Origin: an uncultured Candidatus Saccharibacteria bacterium
Lineage (GTDB): Bacteria; Patescibacteriota; Minisyncoccia; Phycocordibacterales; DATDWN01
Direction: 5' to 3'
Assembly: GCA_964426735.1 (NCBI GenBank)
Contig: CAYRRP010000003.1
Location: 77,378 to 141,377, forward strand
DNA: 64,000 bases
Shown: one piece after another, positions 32,546-39,018 of the stretch
Layout: each line of letters starts with the position of its first letter
How positions within the stretch are numbered: position 1 is the stretch's first letter
Notes under the pieces: model-generated
What the model saw: only the letters and a program-made list of their open reading frames with translations
Told to the model about the DNA's origin: nothing
The model's database searches: none
Translations under genes and position numbers: made by a program

Positions 32546-33094
32546 CTAATCAATAGAACTATTCAATATTTTCAAAAATAACTCATCCCCCTCAGATTCC
32601 TCAACAAAATTCTCCGGATGAAATTGAAAACCATATAGAGGTAAATTTTTATGTTTAATAATTTCAGGACCATCATTTGATATACCCAATACATCAAAAG
32701 TCTCTGGCAACATATCTACTACCCATCGATGACTCTCAAATACCCGTACTATCCCCTCTCCCAAACTTTTATCTAAAAGTCGAACTTCATACATTCCCTT
32801 TTTGTCCTGTGATAGTTCCTTTAGAGTACCTCCAAACGCAGTAACGATAAGTTCATACCCAAAACAAATCCCAATGACCGGAATTTTTGCATTTTTAATA
32901 AAATCTATTTCTTTTTTAAATATGTCCTCATTACCCACCAATTGATATTTACTTCCTCCCGACAAAATAACCACATCAAAATCTGTCGTATCTGTATCAA
33001 AATCAGCAAAAGAATGCACTATTTCTTTTCCAGGAATAAGTACTTTAAGTTTATTTAAAAGGGTTGTTCCATTGTCGATAAGTAAAATTTTCAT
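32546..33094 (-). CDS. class I glutamine amidotransferase-like protein
   Basis: GICFGYE (nucleophile Cys) and FQFHPE (His/Glu), a GATase1 fold with 182 aa. Confidence 0.75.
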   Translation of the reverse strand: MKILLIDNGTTLLNKLKVLIPGKEIVHSFADFDTDTTDFDVVILSGGSKYQLVGNEDIFKKEIDFIKNAKIPVIGICFGYELIVTAFGGTLKELSQDKKGMYEVRLLDKSLGEGIVRVFESHRWVVDMLPETFDVLGISNDGPEIIKHKNLPLYGFQFHPENFVEESEGDELFLKILNSSID

Positions 33095-33156
33095 GTGGTA
33101 AGTATACCAAATTATTTAGCCAAATTAGTAGGAAGAAAGTTAGAAATTTCCACTGG

Positions 33157-33301
33157 TGCGGGTGGGGAGAATCGGTCACGAGTAATTCTGGTTCCGTCGA
33201 ACCAGAATTCTCTCGACCCCGACTCGCGACCCACTCTGGTGAGCGGGTGCCCCCGCTCCGTCTTTCGATTCCCCATGCAAAGCTCTGCTTTGCTCACCCG
33301 C
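33157..33301 (-). ncRNA. GC-rich tRNA-like structured element (copy 1 of the tRNA-Gly-associated RNA motif)
   Basis: It begins GCGGGTG and ends CGATTCTCCCCACCCGCA, identical to the tRNA-Gly(TCC) acceptor 5' strand and last 18 nt. The core (GGGGAATCGAAAG…CGGAGCG…CGCGAG…GGGTCG…TGACCGATTC) is conserved with 37372..37496, and the stems are compensatory. Confidence 0.55.
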
Positions 33302-33347
33302 ACACATATCAAAAAACCGGCATAAAACCGGTTTTTTGATATGTGTG
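33301..33347. repeat. perfect 20-bp palindrome CACACATATCAAAAAACCGG-cataaaa-CCGGTTTTTTGATATGTGTG (bidirectional terminator-like)
   Basis: Exact inverted repeat between tRNA-Gly(TCC) and the tRNA-like element. Confidence 0.85.
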
Positions 33348-33416
33348 CGGGTGGGGAGAATCGAACTCCCGTATACTGCTTGGAAGGCAGTCATTCTACC
33401 ACTAAATTACACCCGC
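33346..33416 (-). tRNA. tRNA-Gly (anticodon TCC)
   Basis: GCGGGTG acceptor, anticodon arm ACTGC-CTTCCAA-GCAGT, T-arm GGGAG-TTCGATT-CTCCC, 71 nt. Confidence 0.9.
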
Positions 33417-33479
33417 GATTGAAATACTCTAGCAGAAAAACAAGTATTCGGCAATTAAAAATGTTATATACTTATACGT

Positions 33480-34607
33480 ATGCTCAGACATCTTTTTACA
33501 AAAATCATTCTTTTCCTTAGCCTGTCTTTCTTTATACACCCCAACCCGGTAGTTATTTCAAACATGCCCACACTTCCCCATTCCACAACCACATCAGAAG
33601 CGAAAGCAACTTCCACTCAATCTGCGATCACATCAACGCCGTCAACACCAAAAAAAGAAACAACAAAGCCAACTGGTACAAAAAATACCTCAAAAGTCAG
33701 CGAAACACAGTCTGTAGCATCATCCACTACTCCCGTAGTAGTCCCAGAACCAACTATTCCCTTTGAGACAATCAACGAAAATGCTCGTAAAGCAGTGGTA
33801 AATATTTTATGTACTGTACAAAACTCTAGCTCACTTTCGACGATTACTGGAAGCGGTATTGTTTTAAGTAGTGATGGTTTGATTTTGACCAACGCTCATG
33901 TAGCACAATATTTCCTCTTTAAAAACTTTAACAATCAAAAAGATTTTATCTCATGCGTAATCCGTACTGGAAACCCTGCCTACCCTACGTATACCGCAGA
34001 GCTCGCATACATTTCTCCACAATGGATAGCGGAACACAAAGGCGATATTGTCCTTGAGAGTCCAAAAGGTACCGGTGAATATGATTATGCTTTTTTACGT
34101 ATTACCGGAAAAACAGATGGCACTATAGCACCCACAACACTTCCGTTTATTCCCATAAATCTGATTGAATTTACAGAAATAGGTACACCAGCAGTACTCG
34201 TCTCATATCCTGCTGGTTTTCTCGGAGGGCAAAGTATTATTCAAAATCTGTATCAAAGTAGTGCAGTGATCAATGTTACTGATCGATTTACATTTGGTGA
34301 GAATACTGTAGACCGACTGTCTCTCGGAGGAAGTGTGGTGGCACAAAAAGGCTCTTCAGGAGGAGCTGTGGTAGATAGCAGAGGTACCCTCATTGGATTG
34401 ATTTCTATTAGCTCAGACGGAAATACCACGGGAGAACGAGACCTTAGTGCCATTACCCTCTCCTACATCAACCGCGATCTTATTAAAAATGCAAACACTA
34501 CTATTTCCTCTATCGCTTCGAATAGCGCTGTCTTTGCCGCAACATTTAATGAAAAATTAGCTCCTGGACTGACTAAAGCATTGAGTGATGTGATTTTGAA
34601 GAAATAA
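33480..34607 (+). CDS. secreted trypsin-like (S1C/HtrA-type) serine protease without a PDZ domain
   Basis: Signal/TM N-terminus and a Thr/Ser-rich linker. Catalytic motifs are TNAHV (His) and GSSGGAVVD (Ser). Confidence 0.75.
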   Translation: MLRHLFTKIILFLSLSFFIHPNPVVISNMPTLPHSTTTSEAKATSTQSAITSTPSTPKKETTKPTGTKNTSKVSETQSVASSTTPVVVPEPTIPFETINENARKAVVNILCTVQNSSSLSTITGSGIVLSSDGLILTNAHVAQYFLFKNFNNQKDFISCVIRTGNPAYPTYTAELAYISPQWIAEHKGDIVLESPKGTGEYDYAFLRITGKTDGTIAPTTLPFIPINLIEFTEIGTPAVLVSYPAGFLGGQSIIQNLYQSSAVINVTDRFTFGENTVDRLSLGGSVVAQKGSSGGAVVDSRGTLIGLISISSDGNTTGERDLSAITLSYINRDLIKNANTTISSIASNSAVFAATFNEKLAPGLTKALSDVILKK

Positions 34608-34632
34608 AAGGTATTGTTACAATATACAGATT

Positions 34633-35145
34633 ATGAAAAAAATCTGGAACTCTTTTTGGAATTGGTACGATAGTCACCCAACACTCACCCTTGGTATAAC
34701 CCTCGGGCTCTTTAGTTTACAAATTATTCACCTGATTTGGCTCTTAACTAGTGTTATTTGGACTAAAGCATTTGGTCACGCACTCTTTGCACCACATGAA
34801 GCTTTTGAGCGCATTCTTGTTCTTGTAGATTATACTGAAATACCAGCACTCATCAGTGCCTCTCTTGTATATATTGACGATTTACGTAAAAAAATAAGCC
34901 CAAAAGCTATCATGTACCTCATCTTCCTCAACACTCAATGGCTTCACCTTTTCTGGATCACTGATGAATATGTAGTAAGTCAATTTACACAAACTGTTCT
35001 TATCCCCTCATGGCTCGCATGGATTGCTATTCTTATAGACTATCTCGAACTTCCAGTGATACTTGATACGCTCAAAAAATTTATTTCATCGCTTCATAAA
35101 GGAGAAGTGAAGCAGGCTTTCCAAGCTATTTCTGAACGAGACTAG
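34633..35145 (+). CDS. integral membrane hypothetical protein (170 aa)
   Basis: Four predicted TM helices. It is Trp-rich and has no recognised domain. Confidence 0.45.
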   Translation: MKKIWNSFWNWYDSHPTLTLGITLGLFSLQIIHLIWLLTSVIWTKAFGHALFAPHEAFERILVLVDYTEIPALISASLVYIDDLRKKISPKAIMYLIFLNTQWLHLFWITDEYVVSQFTQTVLIPSWLAWIAILIDYLELPVILDTLKKFISSLHKGEVKQAFQAISERD

Positions 35146-35202
35146 TTACCCTAAAACATTCTTCCTGAAGAATGTTCGGGCGAACATTTTAGTAAAAATG
35201 TT

Positions 35203-35499
35203 TTAGCCGGCTTTTTCAGCAGCAATTTGTAACACCATATCAAAATTATCTTCTTTTTGTGCTTTATTCGCTCGTGTAAAACCACACTTTTCACATACTT
35301 GAATAATATTGTATTCACTCCCCTTCTTTTGTATTTCCGTTGGACGCATCAGTCCTCCACATGTTTCCGCTCGATCACCTGGGTCAATATCAACATGTTT
35401 AGACCACAAACACTGTGGGCAATGATTCGTAAAACCATTCCCTACCACAGTTTCTCCGCAGTGTTCACAGACAAAATCTTCAATAGTTCGTTTGAACAT
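35203..35499 (-). CDS. RNHCP-domain zinc-ribbon protein
   Basis: TNHCPQCLWSKHVD is the RNHCP signature, and CEHCGE/CEKCG are additional Cys pairs. Confidence 0.7.
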   Translation of the reverse strand: MFKRTIEDFVCEHCGETVVGNGFTNHCPQCLWSKHVDIDPGDRAETCGGLMRPTEIQKKGSEYNIIQVCEKCGFTRANKAQKEDNFDMVLQIAAEKAG

Positions 35500-35539
35500 A
35501 CACCATGTATAGTAACACAATCAATCCAAAAAAAGCCCC

Positions 35540-36109
35540 TCACAAGGAGGGGACTTCTAGTGTCTGTACATCAAATGAAAGTGGATGTCCTGCAGGTGTA
35601 GAAAACACCGCACAGGGAACTGCCAGAAATTGATAGCTGCGCATTGGCGTGTAAACGGGGTCAGAATAAGCATGGTTAAATAAAACAACATAACGCACCT
35701 TTTCATAATCTACTTCCCTACCTACACCAACAGAAGATTGCATGAACTTTTTTTCCGCTTGATTAATCCATGTAGGAAAACTGATAGCAGTTCCTACATG
35801 AAAACCAATAACATCAAAAAGGAAGTATGGAACCGGATAGTTTGCTAAAAATGAGTCAAGTACATGATTTAGCATCCTTCCTTGAAACATCTCGACAGCA
35901 CGCTCTTTGGTGATAATTTTTGGACAATCTGATGTGAAGTATTCAGAAAAACCATTCTGATACAAACCTCTCAACAGTTTCACGTCACCCGAACACAAAA
36001 CAATCTTCAATGAACTCCTCGGTGGATCCTCTAAAACTTTTTTCCAATTTACATACATCATCACAACACCTCCTCGTCTAAATACTAAACTTATTGAATT
36101 AATTGTCAA
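35540..36109 (-). CDS. hypothetical protein (probable start at the internal MMYVNWKK)
   Basis: ORF with no recognised motif. Confidence 0.4.
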   Translation of the reverse strand: MTINSISLVFRRGGVVMMYVNWKKVLEDPPRSSLKIVLCSGDVKLLRGLYQNGFSEYFTSDCPKIITKERAVEMFQGRMLNHVLDSFLANYPVPYFLFDVIGFHVGTAISFPTWINQAEKKFMQSSVGVGREVDYEKVRYVVLFNHAYSDPVYTPMRSYQFLAVPCAVFSTPAGHPLSFDVQTLEVPSL

Positions 36110-36153
36110 AATTGTAATTTAGCACTTTTATGTTACACTAGTTGAGTATTATA

Positions 36154-36226
36154 CGGGGTGTGGTGTAACGGCTAACATGCTTGATTTGGGATCAAGTGAC
36201 TCCGGGTTCGAATCCCGGCACCCCGA
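36154..36226 (+). tRNA. tRNA-Pro (anticodon TGG)
   Basis: CGGGGTG/CACCCCG acceptor, anticodon loop TTTGGGA, T-arm CCGGG-TTCGAAT-CCCGG. Confidence 0.9.
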
Positions 36227-36247
36227 CAATAGATTTTCTAAATACAC

Positions 36248-36673
36248 CTAAAGTATTATATCTTCCAGCATCTTTACCCTACATACTCGTTTTTCTTGAT
36301 CCACATACACCGTAGCTACATCAAACTGCCACTCCGTATCATCTGAGACATTTTTATCAAGCAAATACGACTGTATAGTCCGAGCAAGCCTCTGGAGTTT
36401 CCATGGGTGCATATTATCCTCTGGCCGATACCTATTATTCGTTTCACGTGGCACATCTTCAAACTTTCTCGATACACTCTTCACCTCAACAAAGTGAATT
36501 TTTTTGTCCTTTATAGCTACCACATCCAATTCTCCCCACTTTTTTAAATAGTTACGATCAGTCACCTTAAAACCTTTTCTCTTAAGATACGTACACACCG
36601 CTTCTTCCCCAATTGCACCCAATATCTGTTTTTGGGTTTTAGTATGAACCTTCAATGCAGCTTTTTCTCTCAT
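36248..36673 (-). CDS. yraN: YraN-family (UPF0102) predicted endonuclease
   Basis: …ILGAIGEEAVCTYLKRKGFKV…GELDVVA…IHFVEVKS… The start is at the internal Met MREKAAL. Confidence 0.75.
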   Translation of the reverse strand: MREKAALKVHTKTQKQILGAIGEEAVCTYLKRKGFKVTDRNYLKKWGELDVVAIKDKKIHFVEVKSVSRKFEDVPRETNNRYRPEDNMHPWKLQRLARTIQSYLLDKNVSDDTEWQFDVATVYVDQEKRVCRVKMLEDIIL

Positions 36674-36718
36674 ACATATATAGTATACAAGCTTAATCCT
36701 TTCACGTGTAACTATATT

Positions 36719-36740
36719 ATATGTTACATATGTAACATAT
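36719..36740. promoter_or_regulatory. perfect 22-nt palindrome ATATGTTACAT|ATGTAACATAT upstream of yraN (candidate operator)
   Basis: Exact dyad symmetry 46-67 nt upstream of the yraN start. Confidence 0.5.
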
Positions 36741-37027
36741 AATATTTGAGTAGGTACAGGAGGATTCGTAGTATAAAGTACACAATTTCCTTTGTATAAA
36801 GCCATTTTTGGAGACTTTTGGACACAAAGTCTTATACTTTGAAGCCTGTCAAAGACTGTCTCTAATACACATGTCCACAGACTTATCCACAGTTTTCAAC
36901 ATATTTTGTGTAAAACTGACTTTAATTTAAAGACTTTGTCCCACAGAATAGGGGTTTAATGGAGACAGTCCGTGATCAAATAGACAAAACTTGGCAAAAG
37001 CTAGAAAAAAGGTATGATACATATATT

Positions 37028-37101
37028 GCACCCGTAGCTCAATTGGATAGAGTATTTGTCTTCGGAACAAAGGGTTGCAGGTTCGAGTCCTGCCGGGTGC
37101 A
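37028..37101 (+). tRNA. tRNA-Arg (anticodon TCG)
   Basis: GCACCCG/CGGGTGC acceptor, anticodon loop CTTCGGA, T-arm GCAGG-TTCGAGT-CCTGC. Confidence 0.9.
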
Positions 37102-37107
37102 CACGAC

Positions 37108-37136
37108 AAAAAATCCCAACTGCTTGGGATTTTTTG
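37108..37136 (+). terminator. intrinsic terminator ATCCCAA-ctgc-TTGGGAT-TTTTT
   Basis: Hairpin plus U-run immediately after tRNA-Arg. Confidence 0.7.
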
Positions 37137-37296
37137 CTACGTGTGCACAACGGAGACATGTTTTTTCAGCAGAAAAAAAGGTCGAGTTGTGGACCGAAGG
37201 AAATTTCAATTCGACGGAATTGAAATTATCCGAAGTGTACAAGACAAAACCCTATGTATTTGAATTTCTCCCCACTTTGTGTAAAATGAAGGGGAA

Positions 37297-37367
37297 GCGG
37301 CTATGGTTTAGTGGTAGAACACGTCCTTGCCAAGGATGAGATTCGGGTTCGATTCCCGGTAGCCGCA
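37297..37367 (+). tRNA. tRNA-Gly (anticodon GCC)
   Basis: GCGGCTA/TAGCCGC acceptor, anticodon loop TTGCCAA, T-arm CGGG-TTCGATT-CCCG. Confidence 0.9.
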
Positions 37368-37371
37368 CAGA

Positions 37372-37496
37372 AAAATCGGAGATTTTTATCCGGGAATCGA
37401 AAGCCGGAGCGAGGGTTCCCGTCAGCAGACGGGACCGCGAGGCCGGGTCGGGAAATTTTACGAGTGGCGACGAGTAAAATATTCCTGACCGATTCC
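37372..37496 (+). ncRNA. GC-rich structured element (copy 2 of the tRNA-Gly-associated RNA motif) in the cca leader
   Basis: Small hairpin AAAATC-gga-GATTTT, then CCGGGAATCGAAAGCCGGAGCG…TCCCGTC-agca-GACGGGA…CGCGAG…GGGTCG…variable hairpin…TGACCGATTCC. It aligns with 33157..33301 (-) and shows compensatory stem changes. Confidence 0.55.
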
Positions 37497-37545: not shown

Positions 37546-39018
37546 ATGAATACAAACTTCACTATCCCTGTCGAAGTGTCACGTGTAACACAAACCCTCG
37601 AAAATGCCGGTTTTGAGGCTTTTTTGGTTGGTGGATGTGTACGAGATCTTATCCTCAACAAAAAACCAAAAGATTGGGATGTTACTACCAACGCAACACC
37701 TGAGCAAATCATTGCTTTGTTTCCACATACCTTTTACGAAAACAACTTTGGAACAGTTGGTGTTGTTTCAGATGAAACAGAAGATGACACTCTTAAAACT
37801 ATTGAAGTTACGCCATACCGTCTTGAATCAGAGTATTCTGACAATCGACGCCCAGACGCTGTTACTTTTTCACAAAATCTCACAGATGACTTAAGGCGAC
37901 GCGACTTCACCATTAACGCCCTTGCATACTCAGTATCTAAAGGACAACTCACTGATGTCTTTAATGGACAAGCTGATATTTCTGCTCAAACTATACAAAC
38001 AGTAGGGAATGCGGTCGAAAGACTCACTGAAGATGCCCTTCGTATCATGCGAGCAGTGCGGTTTCATGTGGAACTTGGCTTTATCCTTTCACGTGAAACG
38101 GAAAAAGCGGTACTTGAACACGGTCATTTACTACAAAACATCTCAAAGGAACGCATTCGTGACGAATTTACAAAGATTATTATGTCTCCGCAGCCAATGA
38201 ATGGCTTACTCATGCTGAAAAAGCTGAATTTACTTCAGTATATTGTACCAGAACTGGAAAAAACTATTGGGGTAGAGCAGAACCGGGCACATTCATACGA
38301 TGTATGGGAACATTTACTTCGAAGCCTCCAGACTGCAGCAGATAAGAACTGGCCTCTTGATATTAGACTTACCGCTTTATTTCACGATATTTCAAAACCT
38401 GAGACACGTCGATGGGGAAAAGAGCAGAATACGTGGACATTTTACGGTCATGAAGTAGTTGGTTCACGTGTAACACGGAAAATACTTACTGATTTGCGAT
38501 ATCCGAATAAACTAATTGATAAAGTGGTGACAATGGTGCGATGGCATATGTTTTTTTCTGACACAGAACAGATAAGCCTCTCTGCGGTCCGTAGAATGAT
38601 CGTAAATGTTGGACGAGAGAATATCTGGGATTTGATGAATGTACGCATCTGCGACCGTGTAGGAACTGGTAGACCCAAAGAAGATCCGTACCGCCTCCGC
38701 AAATACCATGCAATGATAGAGGAGGCTCTTCGTGACCCGATTACTGTAGGAATGTTGAAAATAGATGGTAAACGTTTAATCGATGTTACACAGGGAACAC
38801 CTGGTCCTAAAATAGGGTATACACTTCATGCATTACTCGAAGAGGTACTCGAAGATCCAACTAAAAACACTGTGGAATATTTAGAAAAACGCTCTGTTGA
38901 GCTCTATACTATGGATGAGATCGAATTAAAAAAGCTCGGTGAACAAGGTAAACAAACGAAAGAAGAAATAGATCAGCAGGAAATCTCAAAAATTCGTAAA
39001 GGACACAAAGTAAAGTAG
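37546..39018 (+). CDS. cca: CCA-adding tRNA nucleotidyltransferase (Pol-beta head plus HD domain)
   Basis: …GFEAFLVGGCVRDLIL…DWDV… head domain and an HD-domain C-terminus. The start is taken at MNTNFTIP, not the track start 37498. Confidence 0.85.
   Translation: MNTNFTIPVEVSRVTQTLENAGFEAFLVGGCVRDLILNKKPKDWDVTTNATPEQIIALFPHTFYENNFGTVGVVSDETEDDTLKTIEVTPYRLESEYSDNRRPDAVTFSQNLTDDLRRRDFTINALAYSVSKGQLTDVFNGQADISAQTIQTVGNAVERLTEDALRIMRAVRFHVELGFILSRETEKAVLEHGHLLQNISKERIRDEFTKIIMSPQPMNGLLMLKKLNLLQYIVPELEKTIGVEQNRAHSYDVWEHLLRSLQTAADKNWPLDIRLTALFHDISKPETRRWGKEQNTWTFYGHEVVGSRVTRKILTDLRYPNKLIDKVVTMVRWHMFFSDTEQISLSAVRRMIVNVGRENIWDLMNVRICDRVGTGRPKEDPYRLRKYHAMIEEALRDPITVGMLKIDGKRLIDVTQGTPGPKIGYTLHALLEEVLEDPTKNTVEYLEKRSVELYTMDEIELKKLGEQGKQTKEEIDQQEISKIRKGHKVK

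Follow-up and report, generated by a model that had tools for sequence, protein, structure and literature searches.

The two GC-rich elements that follow tRNA-Gly genes in a 64,000-nucleotide stretch of an uncultured Candidatus Saccharibacteria genome (hereafter, the window) are selected structured RNAs and belong to a large RNA family absent from Rfam. The invariable partner of these RNAs is an upstream tRNA or tmRNA gene, which can be of any kind and is not specifically that of tRNA-Gly. The family is not described in the sources searched. Our tentative reading, held at somewhat less than even confidence, is that the element may be a 3'-trailer RNA module alternating between a self-closed junction and the capture of the 3' half of its own tRNA.

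Organization of the Elements in the Window

Both elements are present where the sequence-only reading had placed them. Copy 1 covers 33301-33157 of the minus strand, extending to 33154 once an encoded CCA is counted, and copy 2 occupies 37372-37496 on the plus strand (Table 1). A local GC maximum is observed at each copy (0.61 vs. ~0.35-0.4 in the neighbourhood), and the 19-nt block GGAATCGAAAGNCGGAGCG occurs exactly twice in the 64 kb, for an expectation of 0.03. Folding compared with shuffled sequences gives z = -7.3 for copy 1 and -3.9 for copy 2. As had been claimed, three hairpins keep their pairing between the two copies while differing in sequence. The covariance model R1 assigns 87.4 bits to copy 1 (E 8.5e-21) and 88.5 bits to copy 2 over 37393-37496 (E 4.2e-21). 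The tRNA-Gly genes upstream, in the same orientation, were confirmed with ARAGORN, and the genes named in the earlier reading do follow the two copies (GATase class I and a PolyA_pol/HD CCA-adding-type enzyme).

Table 1. Coordinates of the three elements, their parts, and neighbouring genes in the window.
Feature	Position	Strand	Basis or remark
tRNA-Gly(TCC)	33345..33416	-	ARAGORN; Rfam tRNA, 73.7 bits
Near-perfect palindrome	33295..33353	-	Sequence; folds as one long hairpin
Arm a of copy 1, GTGCGGGTG	33303-33295	-	Inverted copy of flank and acceptor strand
P0 mini-hairpin of copy 1, CAAAGC-AGA-GCTTTG	33278..33292	-	Sequence, fold
Core of copy 1	33168..33272	-	Model R1, MFE, covariation
P1 3' strand and tail of copy 1, CGATTCTCCCCACCCGCA	33154..33174	-	Sequence comparison with tRNA
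Class I glutamine amidotransferase gene	32546..33094	-	60 nt downstream of copy 1; context, outside the element
tRNA-Arg(TCG)	37028..37102	+	ARAGORN; Rfam; followed by the degenerate third element
tRNA-Arg palindrome	37096..37148	+	Sequence, fold
Copy 3, degenerate variant	37143..37240	+	R1 with filters off: 14.5 bits, E 0.0024 within 1.5 kb
tRNA-Gly(GCC)	37297..37368	+	ARAGORN; Rfam
P0 mini-hairpin of copy 2, AAAAATC-GGA-GATTTTT	37371..37387	+	Sequence, fold
Arm b, CCGGGAATCGAA, and core of copy 2	37390..37496	+	Model R1
CCA-adding-type nucleotidyltransferase gene	37546..39018	+	50 nt downstream of copy 2; context only

In copy 1, the 3' half of tRNA-Gly(TCC) (T54 at 33365, C56 at 33363, A73 at 33346) is copied in both inverted and direct orientation. 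The palindrome is made up, in order, of the tRNA acceptor 3' strand with 8 nt of flank, a terminator-like hairpin (A6-CCGG/CCGG-T6), and the inverted flank and acceptor strand. P0, with linkers AG and CAT on its sides, divides the antisense arm at the boundary between tRNA positions 65 and 66. The core is then composed of the P1 5' strand GGAATCG (antisense of the T-loop), J1/2 (G)AAAG, P2 with its GGA/GA internal loop, the P3 hairpin, the P4 hairpin with its base GGGTC...TGACC, and the P1 3' strand CGATTCT. CGATTCTCCCCACCCGCA repeats tRNA positions 56-73 exactly (18 nt, or 19 nt counting the next base, C); CCA follows the tail, where the tRNA gene itself has CAC. The ends proposed earlier for copy 1 need one correction. 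The element does start with GCGGGTG (tRNA positions 1-7) and end with the last 18 nt of the tRNA plus CCA, but its 5' strand, rather than copying that of the tRNA, is the tRNA 3' strand in reverse complement.

Copy 2 is devoid of arm a. Its arm b is perfectly complementary to TTCGATTCCCGG in tRNA-Gly(GCC) (37348-37359). The P1 3' strand, CGATTCC, corresponds to 37490-37496; the tail repeat is absent past those 7 nt, and no second copy of the tRNA-Gly(GCC) 3' end is found anywhere in the window. Copy 3 has neither P1 nor a tail. In the palindrome associated with it, the terminator-like hairpin A6TCCCAA-CTGC-TTGGGAT6 separates the 3' end and flank of tRNA-Arg from the inverted copy CGTGTGCAC; copy 3 itself is made of AACGGAGAC, hairpin P3 (loop AGCA), GTCGAGTT, and hairpin P4 (loop GACG), in that order. 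The same P1-less architecture is also found after tRNA-Lys in loci L096, L007, and L041.

A Large RNA Family With a Covarying Core

Relatives were gathered by a pattern scan and a covariance model. More than 120 were found, almost all in Patescibacteria MAGs, with 124 matches in 100 loci; homologs with covariation thus exist in related Patescibacteria. Comparison with Rfam 15 yielded no matching family for either window copy, even at E<=10, in agreement with the earlier failure to recognize a known family. Across 118 relatives, 93.7% of the cells are paired, vs. 73.9% in shuffles and 32-47% in slid controls, and 22 of the 25 pairs show changes on both sides. An N:N' pair in P2 takes all four Watson-Crick types (CG 49, AU 36, GC 22, UA 8), and compensatory changes are abundant in P4. 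The resulting core is a three-way junction (P1, P2/P3, P4) with ~25 invariant junction and internal-loop nucleotides. P0 is found in 44 of 77 copies; it is mostly 9 bp long, sits at the 64/65 or 65/66 junction, and is flanked in most copies by the conserved linkers A and GU.

A small three-way junction with invariant junction nucleotides and variable peripheral stems, present in many copies with a patchy distribution like several bacterial self-cleaving classes, might be a new self-cleaving or self-processing ribozyme of tRNA trailers. Its T-loop-derived P1 would be the substrate helix, and cleavage would cut the trailer or free the tail. We regard this as improbable. The ribozyme families of Rfam 15 give no match even at E<=10, the junction linkers (4, 2, and 0 nt) are incompatible with a hammerhead core, and canonical and P1-less copies do not place the core at the same point of the tRNA sequence, which leaves no fixed cleavage site.

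Linkage to tRNA and tmRNA Genes

Seventy-eight of the 103 strong matches are located 20-88 nt (median 58) past a same-strand tRNA or tmRNA, and 8 further strong matches lie at locus edges. The partners are of 27 kinds, 26 anticodon species plus tmRNA, and many copies have tRNA genes on both sides or belong to tandem arrays. What the window shows, a tRNA-Gly before and a protein gene after each copy, is a special case of a general tRNA/tmRNA rule: the upstream linkage is conserved, whereas the association with tRNA-Gly as such and that with cca or the amidotransferase are not.

The sequence-only reading had raised the possibility of cis-regulatory RNAs in the 5' leaders of the amidotransferase gene and cca, the position before cca being considered suggestive; such riboswitch-like leaders would control these two genes. 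The window copies do lie 50-60 nt before same-strand genes, with no strong terminator in between. However, no downstream or neighbouring protein family is enriched across ~100 loci (the maximum is 7 loci, all for housekeeping genes), and many copies have terminators or other tRNA genes next. Moreover, in relatives with a cca product 86-94% identical, tRNA-Gly(GCC) directly precedes cca and the element is absent. The link to cca is local synteny in this lineage, and control of downstream genes, largely refuted by the context survey, is now very hard to credit.

Complementarity to the Preceding tRNA

The T-stem and acceptor 3' strands of the preceding tRNA recur in the 5' arm as their Watson-Crick reverse complement, which extends from the T-loop to position 74 and often into the flank; the arm is often split at 64/65 by the 9-bp P0. 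P1 is formed by the antisense T-loop paired to a short direct T-loop copy, and it follows the local T-loop (GGATTCG with TTCGAATCC, GGACTCG with TTCGAGTCC). In about half of the copies, the direct copy is extended into a full repeat of the tRNA 3' end (tail), and in about half there is no direct repeat beyond 6-8 nt.

Pairing of the arm with the last 22 nt of the tRNA averages -28 kcal/mol vs. -18.8 with its own tail, and in 68 of 76 copies the more favourable duplex is the one with the tRNA. Where these two partners diverge in sequence, it is the tRNA base that the arm matches (26 tRNA only, 10 both). At G.U or mismatch positions of acceptor stems, 16 cases show an arm complementary to the 3' strand and 4 an arm identical to the 5' strand. 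The helix runs on into the flank in 39 of the 54 copies having their acceptor 3' strand paired by the arm. In an unbiased sample, pairing of the tRNA 3' end with downstream sequence averages -18.3 kcal/mol for tRNAs with an element, vs. -12.3 for those without and -12.2 for the control. Interior positions of arm:tRNA helices show 18 G.U pairs vs. 6 A.C mismatches, an excess that points to pairing of the sense strand.

The "tRNA-like" idea put forward earlier holds in that arm plus tail can form an acceptor/T-like helix. An aminoacylation mimic was, on the other hand, ruled out by the strict complementarity of the arm. With tRNA-Ala, the arm sets an A opposite U70 in place of the G3.U70 pair of the tRNA, and it pairs the discriminator as well. 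A stable small RNA resembling a tRNA top half, or a processing signal, is a rather unlikely alternative. The helix would then be recognized by RNase P, RNase Z, and the CCA-adding enzyme; a ~150-170-nt RNA would be released, or the ends of neighbouring transcripts would be set, and the core would have a function in trans. Copy 1 suits this model, with a 7-bp acceptor stem identical to that of tRNA-Gly(TCC), a hairpin set between linkers of 2 and then 3 nt, and after these a T-like stem and an encoded CCA. P0 also lies at the acceptor/T boundary, with its linkers conserved in most copies. Plant mitochondrial t-elements, reported to be tRNA-like processing signals (PMC1920247), offer a precedent. 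In t-elements, mascRNA, and the tRNA-like domain of tmRNA, as in the element, the two ends of a non-tRNA RNA come together in an acceptor/T-like coaxial helix, and copy 1 even encodes CCA. The element differs from them in that its helix strictly complements the 3' strand of a neighbouring tRNA, including discriminator and T-loop, in that many copies have no 3' strand, and in its ~90-nt junction domain at the T-loop position. Against the model, the tail is missing in about half of the copies, making the helix impossible there, and P1-less variants exist. In addition, the arm also pairs positions 73-74, leaving no free discriminator, Watson-Crick pairs replace identity pairs such as G3.U70, and the T-loop is fully paired so that an elbow cannot form.

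Patchy Distribution and Possible Mobility

Among 219 tRNAs of related metagenome loci, 12% have a detectable copy. Occupancy is patchy, and close relatives show empty sites. Such a distribution could reflect a protein-less mobile or integrative mini-element targeting tRNA and tmRNA genes, which we consider unlikely. A small single-stranded intermediate, either circular or a hairpin and made of DNA or of RNA that is copied into DNA, would carry a copy of the tRNA 3' end paired to its inverse. By recombining with the T-loop region of the tRNA gene, in the manner of islands and phages, it would leave the arrangement S-spacer-S'-core-S; the core would be kept because the intermediate must fold. 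Several features favour this route. In 56 of 105 copies, C56 is the first base of a direct repeat of the tRNA 3' end, typically 18-22 nt long, both tRNA and tmRNA genes are targeted, whole units form tandem arrays in L039, L027, and L004, and some loci carry 2-5 copies per 8 kb. Cores 93-98% identical are found behind different tRNAs and in different genomes, the arm is strictly complementary with a perfect palindrome through the flank, and CC(A) after the discriminator is commoner in tails (9/32) than in genes (3/32). However, no integrase, transposase, or reverse transcriptase is found among 150 neighbouring or 498 clustered ORFs, and the viral contigs searched contain zero matches. A T-loop crossover accompanying a switch of tRNA would produce a chimeric, dead tRNA, yet intact tRNAs of 26 anticodon species are occupied. 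The arms are target-derived and not constant, hence not transposase-type terminal repeats, and about half of the copies are without the long direct repeat. Finally, the orthologous copies of UBA910 and L054 are retained and their structure is kept by compensatory changes, behaviour that would not be expected of dead insertions.

Relationships With Known Systems

The combination of a junction core with an arm antisense to the 3' end of the preceding tRNA has no close described counterpart. Islands and prophages reportedly integrate in tRNA and tmRNA genes by means of tyrosine integrases, with the T-loop as a sublocation. Their attachment-site repeats resemble the present ones by the direct repeat of the tRNA 3' end from the T-loop, the use of both tRNA and tmRNA genes, the intact upstream tRNA, and tandem accretion. 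In contrast, the whole insert here is 100-250 nt without integrase or cargo, it includes an inverted copy of the same tRNA segment and a covarying RNA core, and the repeat is missing in half of the copies. CTX-phi and other IMEX elements reportedly use a folded single-stranded attP made from two inverted site copies. There too, sense and antisense target copies ~100 nt apart can fold into a target-mimicking duplex, but the target is dif and the enzyme XerCD, whereas here the target is a tRNA 3' end, with no attached phage genome and no matches in viral contigs. Self-splicing tRNA introns of the same phylum are likewise selfish-looking, protein-less, patchy structured RNAs tied to tRNA genes, with guide-like pairing to flanking tRNA sequence. 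They sit in the anticodon loop and interrupt the tRNA, whereas the element follows an intact tRNA, is half their size, and has no Intron_gpI match in Rfam.

The rtT repeats of the E. coli tyrT operon (RtT RNA, Rfam RF00391) give an RNA released during tRNA processing. Their units also lie downstream of a tRNA gene, each ending in a copy of the tRNA 3' end, but they do not match the element in sequence or structure (no Rfam match), are not known to have an antisense arm or a conserved junction core, and are known from a single locus in enterobacteria. T-box riboswitches are, like the element, structured RNAs reading a specific tRNA by base pairing with two alternative folds. They are located in mRNA leaders and pair in trans with a folded tRNA, at its anticodon and over 4 nt of its NCCA end; the element is complementary to ~20 nt of the tRNA 3' half, is located in the trailer of that very tRNA, and has no T-box match in Rfam.

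A Possible Switch in tRNA 3' Trailers

For the trailer switch that we tentatively favour, we infer transcription of the module with its tRNA by read-through, switching between two mutually exclusive states, and an effect on the tRNA. In the self-closed state, the arm would pair with its own P1 3' strand and tail, the junction would form, and the tRNA would be free. In the fold-back state, the arm would invade the acceptor and T stems with the paired flank as a toehold, and the tRNA 3' half would be captured; the tail, if present, could stand in for it in the cloverleaf. Both states look selected, since the P1 3' strand is retained in tail-less copies and arm a is retained where the tRNA is the sole partner (e.g., L046, -39 kcal/mol). 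When whole tRNA-plus-element transcripts are folded, the predicted MFE structure is that of the fold-back state. This state may not form in cells, since the nearest-neighbour model takes no account of the tertiary structure of the tRNA or of folding during transcription. For copy 1, the predicted fold pairs the tRNA 5' strand with the tail (z = -11.9). A T-run follows a hairpin in 53 of 78 spacers, and much transcription may therefore stop ahead of the element.

The switch gives no account of how each copy gained its arm, and the palindromes, long and perfect and with loops that can be as short as 2-8 nt, have the look of copying at the DNA level and not of selection at the RNA level. The patchy presence and empty sites argue against an important host function and fit a selfish element. 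Under the switch reading, the conserved junction would be the putative site where a protein or ligand sets the balance between the two states, and this balance would decide whether the read-through precursor is matured, processed elsewhere, or discarded.

The Window Copies and Their tRNA Genes

Two GC-rich structured elements put forward by the sequence-only reading, copies 1 and 2, are present where it placed them. The GGAATCGAAAGNCGGAGCG block occurs twice in the window (vs. 0.03 occurrences expected), and both copies coincide with a local GC maximum of 0.61 for a background of 0.35-0.4. Compared with dinucleotide shuffles, copy 1 folds at -81.6 kcal/mol (z = -7.3) and copy 2 at -56.1 kcal/mol (z = -3.9). 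Pairwise alignment makes the conserved blocks visible and shows, as had been described, three hairpins that differ in sequence between the copies and retain their pairing. A tRNA-Gly is indeed found directly 5′ of each copy by ARAGORN and Rfam. The genes on the 3′ side are those that had been named, a class I glutamine amidotransferase and a PolyA_pol/HD nucleotidyltransferase of the CCA-adding type.

The core of the element is made up of the helices P1, P2/P3, and P4. The arm, located 5′ of P1, is antisense to the 3′ half of the tRNA (arm a, acceptor portion; arm b, 12-nt portion in copy 2) and may be split by a hairpin, P0. The tail is a direct repeat of the tRNA 3′ end after P1.

Coordinates of the elements, tRNA genes, and associated signals in the window
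Feature	Position	Strand	Remarks
Copy 1	33157-33301	-	Behind tRNA-Gly(TCC)
Palindrome of copy 1	33295-33353		Flank complementarity continuing into a terminator-like hairpin
tRNA-Gly(TCC)	33345-33416	-	ARAGORN, Rfam
Promoter match	36991-37018	+	Sigma-70-like; directly 5′ of tRNA-Arg
Palindrome before copy 3	37096-37148
Copy 3	37143-37240	+	Degenerate, without P1 or tail; behind tRNA-Arg(TCG)
Promoter match	37260-37287	+	Sigma-70-like; directly 5′ of tRNA-Gly(GCC)
tRNA-Gly(GCC)	37297-37368	+	ARAGORN, Rfam
Copy 2	37372-37496	+	Behind tRNA-Gly(GCC)

A family member lies behind three of the four tRNA genes of the window. Copy 1 carries a tail identical to positions 56-73 of its tRNA (19 nt counting the next base), followed by CCA where the tRNA gene has CAC; its arm plus the palindrome pair 20 of 22 nt of the tRNA 3′ part. 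Copy 2 has arm b alone, a perfect 12-nt complement of its tRNA, and a 7-nt P1 strand alone in place of the tail. Another copy of the tRNA-Gly(GCC) 3′ end, the marker of a large island, was sought across the 64-kb window and none was found. In copy 3, the tRNA 3′ end, a terminator-like hairpin, and the inverted copy run straight into a diverged P2/P3/P4. Because promoter matches precede both tRNA-Arg and tRNA-Gly(GCC), each of these two tRNAs may form its own transcription unit with its element.

A Conserved Three-Way Junction

The three-way junction is supported both by RNAalifold and by R1, a covariance model built from 54 aligned cores (alignment A2). In P1, GGAAUC(G) is paired with (C)GAUUCC, and J1/2 reads (G)AAAG. 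P2 consists of GNC/GN′C and GCG/CGC, with an internal loop GGA/GA where tandem G.A pairs are possible, and is capped by P3, whose length is very variable. P4 is reached by a 2-nt linker; its conserved base is GGGUC/UGACC, in which one G.U pair is invariant, and its stem varies and often ends in a GACG or AGCA tetraloop. In an alignment of 118 sequences (A3), standard pairs fill 93.7% of the cells, vs. 73.9% after shuffling and 32-47% with slid partners. Both sides have changed at 22 of the 25 pairs, and the N:N′ pair is found as CG (49), AU (36), GC (22), and UA (8). This pairing bears out the earlier claim of a selected structure with compensatory changes and with covarying homologs. Judged by these substitutions, the core is a selected single-strand structure, and the selected strand is the tRNA-sense strand because G.U pairs are frequent and A.C mismatches are rare.

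Several variants of the core were encountered. A form lacking P1 and tail occurs after tRNA-Lys in several genomes, with a hairpin of tRNA 3′ end and arm leading to AG-P2-P4. At nine loci (L011, L042, L056, L068, L087, L094, L102, L104, and L107), the P1 3′ strand contains an additional hairpin that separates A58 from U59 in the T-loop copy (GACCGA-AAGYGGUAAUCCRCGG-UUCC), and the three-way junction therefore becomes a four-way junction. Besides, close relatives carry behind tRNA-Arg(TCG) a similar antisense arm, a P0, a GGAATCGAA strand, and a GATTCC tail around a different, two-hairpin core to which R1 is blind (L125:850-1000, also L120 and L121). The true family is probably much bigger than R1 reveals.

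Known RNA Families

None of the 4227 models of Rfam 15, which include riboswitches, ribozymes, tmRNA, RNase P, SRP, 6S, YrlA, RtT, and T-box, reaches its gathering threshold in either element when the whole window is searched, in line with the failure of the sequence-only reading to name a family; the only threshold matches in the window are the four tRNAs. At E ≤ 10, the matches in the two regions are the tRNAs, look-alike hairpins lying over the palindrome, and mir-877, a single chance match below threshold that overlaps the core (19.7 bits for a cutoff of 47, E 0.3). ARAGORN finds neither tmRNA nor permuted tmRNA in the window, and a weak tmRNA_permuted match (18.7 bits) is just the tRNA T-arm plus the palindrome. 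A group I intron requires a P3-P9 core and an interrupted tRNA; here the upstream tRNAs are complete, there is no Intron_gpI match, and the core is only about 100 nt long.

Could the core cleave itself? No known self-cleaving class gives an Rfam match at E ≤ 10. With linkers of 4, 2, and 0 nt, the junction departs from a hammerhead core, and by-eye comparison with hammerhead, HDV, and other ribozyme cores finds disagreement in linker lengths and sequences. That the element is a new self-cleaving ribozyme is considered highly improbable.

Spread of the Family

An exact-pattern scan of a collection of species-representative genomes returned at least 119 loci. About 16 of these are chance matches in coding DNA of unrelated phyla, and the remaining ones are intergenic, in MAGs labeled Patescibacteria, Parcubacteria, Paceibacterota, Saccharibacteria, and candidate classes thereof. 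Real, high-scoring copies are also found in six loci with titles of Elusimicrobia, Bdellovibrionales, or Gammaproteobacteria (L027, L053, L031, L049, L039, and L099). Either their labels or bins are wrong, or the family extends past Patescibacteria. Three pattern scans of viral contigs gave no match.

The covariance-model search that had been proposed yields 124 matches when run on the first 100 loci, where 8 kb often contain 2-5 copies. R1 gives the window copies scores of 88.5 and 87.4 bits and, with default filters, no other match in the window; both show the features that define the family, a three-way junction and a same-strand tRNA or tmRNA upstream with a complementary arm. A loose regular expression for divergent cores 3′ of tRNAs was unspecific (20 downstream, 13 upstream, 10 antisense).

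Genomic Context

Context was surveyed with ARAGORN for 103 strong matches. Among them, 78 start 20-88 nt (median 58) behind a same-strand tRNA or tmRNA, the partners comprising 26 anticodon species plus tmRNA. The other matches lie at locus edges (8), behind another copy (3), 130-400 nt downstream of a tRNA (4), or without detected tRNA within 400 nt (10). Arms and tails of the last group look tRNA-derived (for example, L002:2633-2710, L026:426-587, L060:2184-2280, and L081:6581-6674), and four of the ten are within about 250 nt of a locus edge, where the tRNA could be cut off. Away from edges, the partner may have been lost, or may be a tRNA with an intron, of a kind overlooked by standard tools (compare PMC13011429).

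Adjoining ORFs are ordinary housekeeping genes, with no family present at more than 7 loci. The recurrent families of 150 neighboring ORFs include no integrase, transposase, or reverse transcriptase (Phage_integrase and RVT included), and no neighbor-gene cluster is enriched. Many copies stand between tRNA genes or are followed by terminators. The neighbor that stays constant is the tRNA or tmRNA gene upstream of the element rather than any protein gene. Accordingly, one half of the context anticipated by the sequence-only reading, the upstream tRNA, is conserved (tRNA or tmRNA), whereas cca and the amidotransferase do not recur downstream. The idea of a leader of these two genes does not generalize, because there is no recurrent neighbor family and because of the tRNA-gene and terminator settings. 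A leader riboswitch acting on the downstream gene is contradicted by this survey and is hardly credible.

Complementarity to the Upstream tRNA

GGAAUCGAA, the 5′ strand of P1, is antisense to the T-loop TTCGATTCC. It becomes GGATTCG or GGACTCG where the neighboring tRNA carries TTCGAATCC or TTCGAGTCC, and the 3′ strand follows. The arm, 5′ of P1, matches the T-stem and acceptor 3′ strands in reverse complement as far as positions 73-74, and its pairing with the last 22 nt of the tRNA averages -28 kcal/mol. Of 77 copies, 44 have the arm split by P0, which has linkers A and GU and lies at tRNA position 64/65 or 65/66; it has 9 bp in 32 of these and a CUGC loop in 16. In 56 of 105 copies, the tail repeats the tRNA 3′ end exactly and in direct orientation, typically for 18-22 nt from C56, and where tail and tRNA disagree, the arm fits the tRNA.

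The element had been proposed to start with a copy of the tRNA 5′ acceptor strand. At acceptor-stem G.U and mismatch positions, 16 cases show the arm as Watson-Crick partner of the 3′ strand and 4 show it identical to the 5′ strand; in tRNA-Ala, for instance, an A of the arm faces U70. Because of this count, the arm is taken as an inverted copy of the tRNA 3′ end; the 5′-strand proposal is rejected, and with it a true tRNA paralogue. Nor does the element behave as an aminoacylatable or processed tRNA mimic: the arm also pairs positions 73-74, leaving no free discriminator, Watson-Crick pairs replace G.U identity pairs in 16 of 20 informative cases, and the 3′ strand is missing in about half of the copies. 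A processed small RNA resembling the top half of a tRNA, or a processing signal of this kind, would suit copy 1 and the position of P0 but fails for tail-less copies and on the identity-pair test, and we regard it as distinctly unlikely.

At many loci, complementarity extends across the flank as far as a terminator-like hairpin, and the resulting perfect palindromes measure up to about 40 bp. For 215 tRNAs sampled without bias from related metagenome loci, pairing of the tRNA 3′ end with downstream sequence averages -18.3 kcal/mol with an element, -12.3 without, and -12.2 in the control. Strong complementarity is confined to element-bearing tRNAs. Because element-free tRNAs equal the control, fold-back palindromes as a general tRNA-terminator trait of these genomes were discarded.

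In loci L001-L119, CCA is not encoded by the tRNA genes, in which CA(A/T) mostly comes after the discriminator. CC(A) follows the discriminator in 9 of 32 tails vs. 3 of 32 genes, an excess which hints that mature tRNA may be used as a template. Template-switch and reverse-transcription origins of arm and tail were also considered, and none covers all features. In MAG UBA910 (L038:3700-4060), the tail of the copy-1 orthologue deviates from its own tRNA and is followed by a terminator palindrome and the tail's inverted copy; this region resembles the end of a tRNA gene running in the opposite direction, as though two convergent tRNAs had one element in common.

Gain, Loss, and Exchange

In 80 related metagenome loci fetched with the CCA-enzyme protein of the window, R1 detects a copy behind 27 of 219 tRNAs (12%). 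In relatives with a cca product 86-94% identical to that of the window, no element separates tRNA-Gly(GCC) from cca, which comes directly after it, and UBA910 retains both window copies in unchanged arrangement with compensatory changes in P3 and P4. Cores 93-98% identical are found behind different tRNAs in different genomes (Pro vs. Arg, tmRNA vs. Cys), and whole units form tandem arrays. From this patchy occupancy, the empty site in relatives, the near-identical cores behind different tRNAs, and the arrays, it follows that the family is gained, lost, and exchanged, retained copies still being under structural selection. Head-to-tail units of tRNA 3′ end copy, spacer hairpin, arm, and core are seen at L039, L027, and L004 and at L020 and L081 (5 copies in 8 kb). 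When L020 is compared with L081, near-identical cores stand behind different tRNAs in one syntenic cluster, which suggests that cores are swapped between copies.

A mobile origin has to be weighed here. As in tRNA/tmRNA islands, a direct repeat flanks the insert (at least 12 nt in 56 of 105 copies); the insert, of 100-250 nt, does not hold the integrase and cargo of such islands. A MITE or small non-autonomous transposon was rejected: arms vary with each copy and match the 3′ end of the local tRNA and the complement of that end, and the repeat is 6 to 46 nt long vs. the short, fixed-length target duplication required. A protein-less integrative or mobile mini-element would account for a direct repeat that starts in the T-loop, for tRNA and tmRNA targets, and for arrays and patchiness, but not for repeat-less copies or for retargeting to 26 anticodon species without chimeric tRNAs, and no recombinase appears among the recurrent families of the neighboring ORFs. 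It is judged unlikely, though worth keeping in mind.

A Possible Two-State Module

In whole tRNA-plus-element transcripts, the predicted minimum free energy structure is a fold-back of the arm on the tRNA 3′ half. For copy 1, the tail is the predicted partner of the tRNA 5′ acceptor strand (-148.9 kcal/mol, z = -11.9). The helix runs into unstructured flank in 39 of 54 copies with an arm-paired acceptor 3′ strand. Both pairings seem to matter, because the P1 3′ strand is kept in tail-less copies and arm a where the tRNA is its sole possible partner.

We tentatively favor, at somewhat less than an even chance, a two-state module in the tRNA 3′ trailer, whose transcription, switching, and consequence for the tRNA we infer. 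In the self-closed state, the junction would be formed and the tRNA free; in the fold-back state, the tRNA 3′ half would be captured and the tail could stand in for it. The flank stretch paired beyond the acceptor strand would be a toehold for strand invasion, and the invariant junction would be the place of action of a protein or ligand.

A bolder and rather doubtful reading is that of a programmable, protein-free RNA device. Its core would be a ribozyme or sensor and its arm would be rewritten for each tRNA or tmRNA; acting on RNA, it would capture, swap, or re-join the tRNA 3′ half, the tail replacing the captured half, and might spread via an intermediate, RNA or single-stranded, for which the tRNA 3′ end is the template. 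If true, this would be a new kind of tRNA-directed RNA element, of a rank comparable to self-splicing introns.

Relation to Known Systems and Significance

Among known systems, those that come closest are att repeats of islands integrated at tRNA genes, the folded attP of CTX-phi, the E. coli tyrT rtT repeats, tRNA-like processing signals such as t-elements, T-boxes, and group I introns in Patescibacterial tRNA genes (PMC13011429). Each has one trait in common with the element and one defining feature that failed in the tests made here. No description of the element was found in the searchable literature, whose coverage is incomplete, so that an earlier description may exist elsewhere. We conclude that this tRNA-linked RNA element is real and widespread and apparently of a new kind.

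Much of bacterial diversity belongs to the Patescibacteria, whose RNA biology has hardly been explored. Here, an RNA fold that is deeply conserved and abundant (over 120 copies in a small sample) is tied to the most conserved genes of the cell, each copy carrying about 20 nt addressed to its own tRNA. The family accounts for duplicated tRNA 3′ ends that can be mistaken for island scars, and the covariance model can be used to annotate hundreds of intergenic regions that are now blank. Transcripts of about 250 nt are directly open to probing, processing, and cleavage assays. If the element is mobile, it would represent protein-less targeting of tRNA genes, with the target sequence copied in both orientations. 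If it gates tRNA maturation, it would provide RNA-level control of stable-RNA supply in hosts with minimal regulatory proteins.
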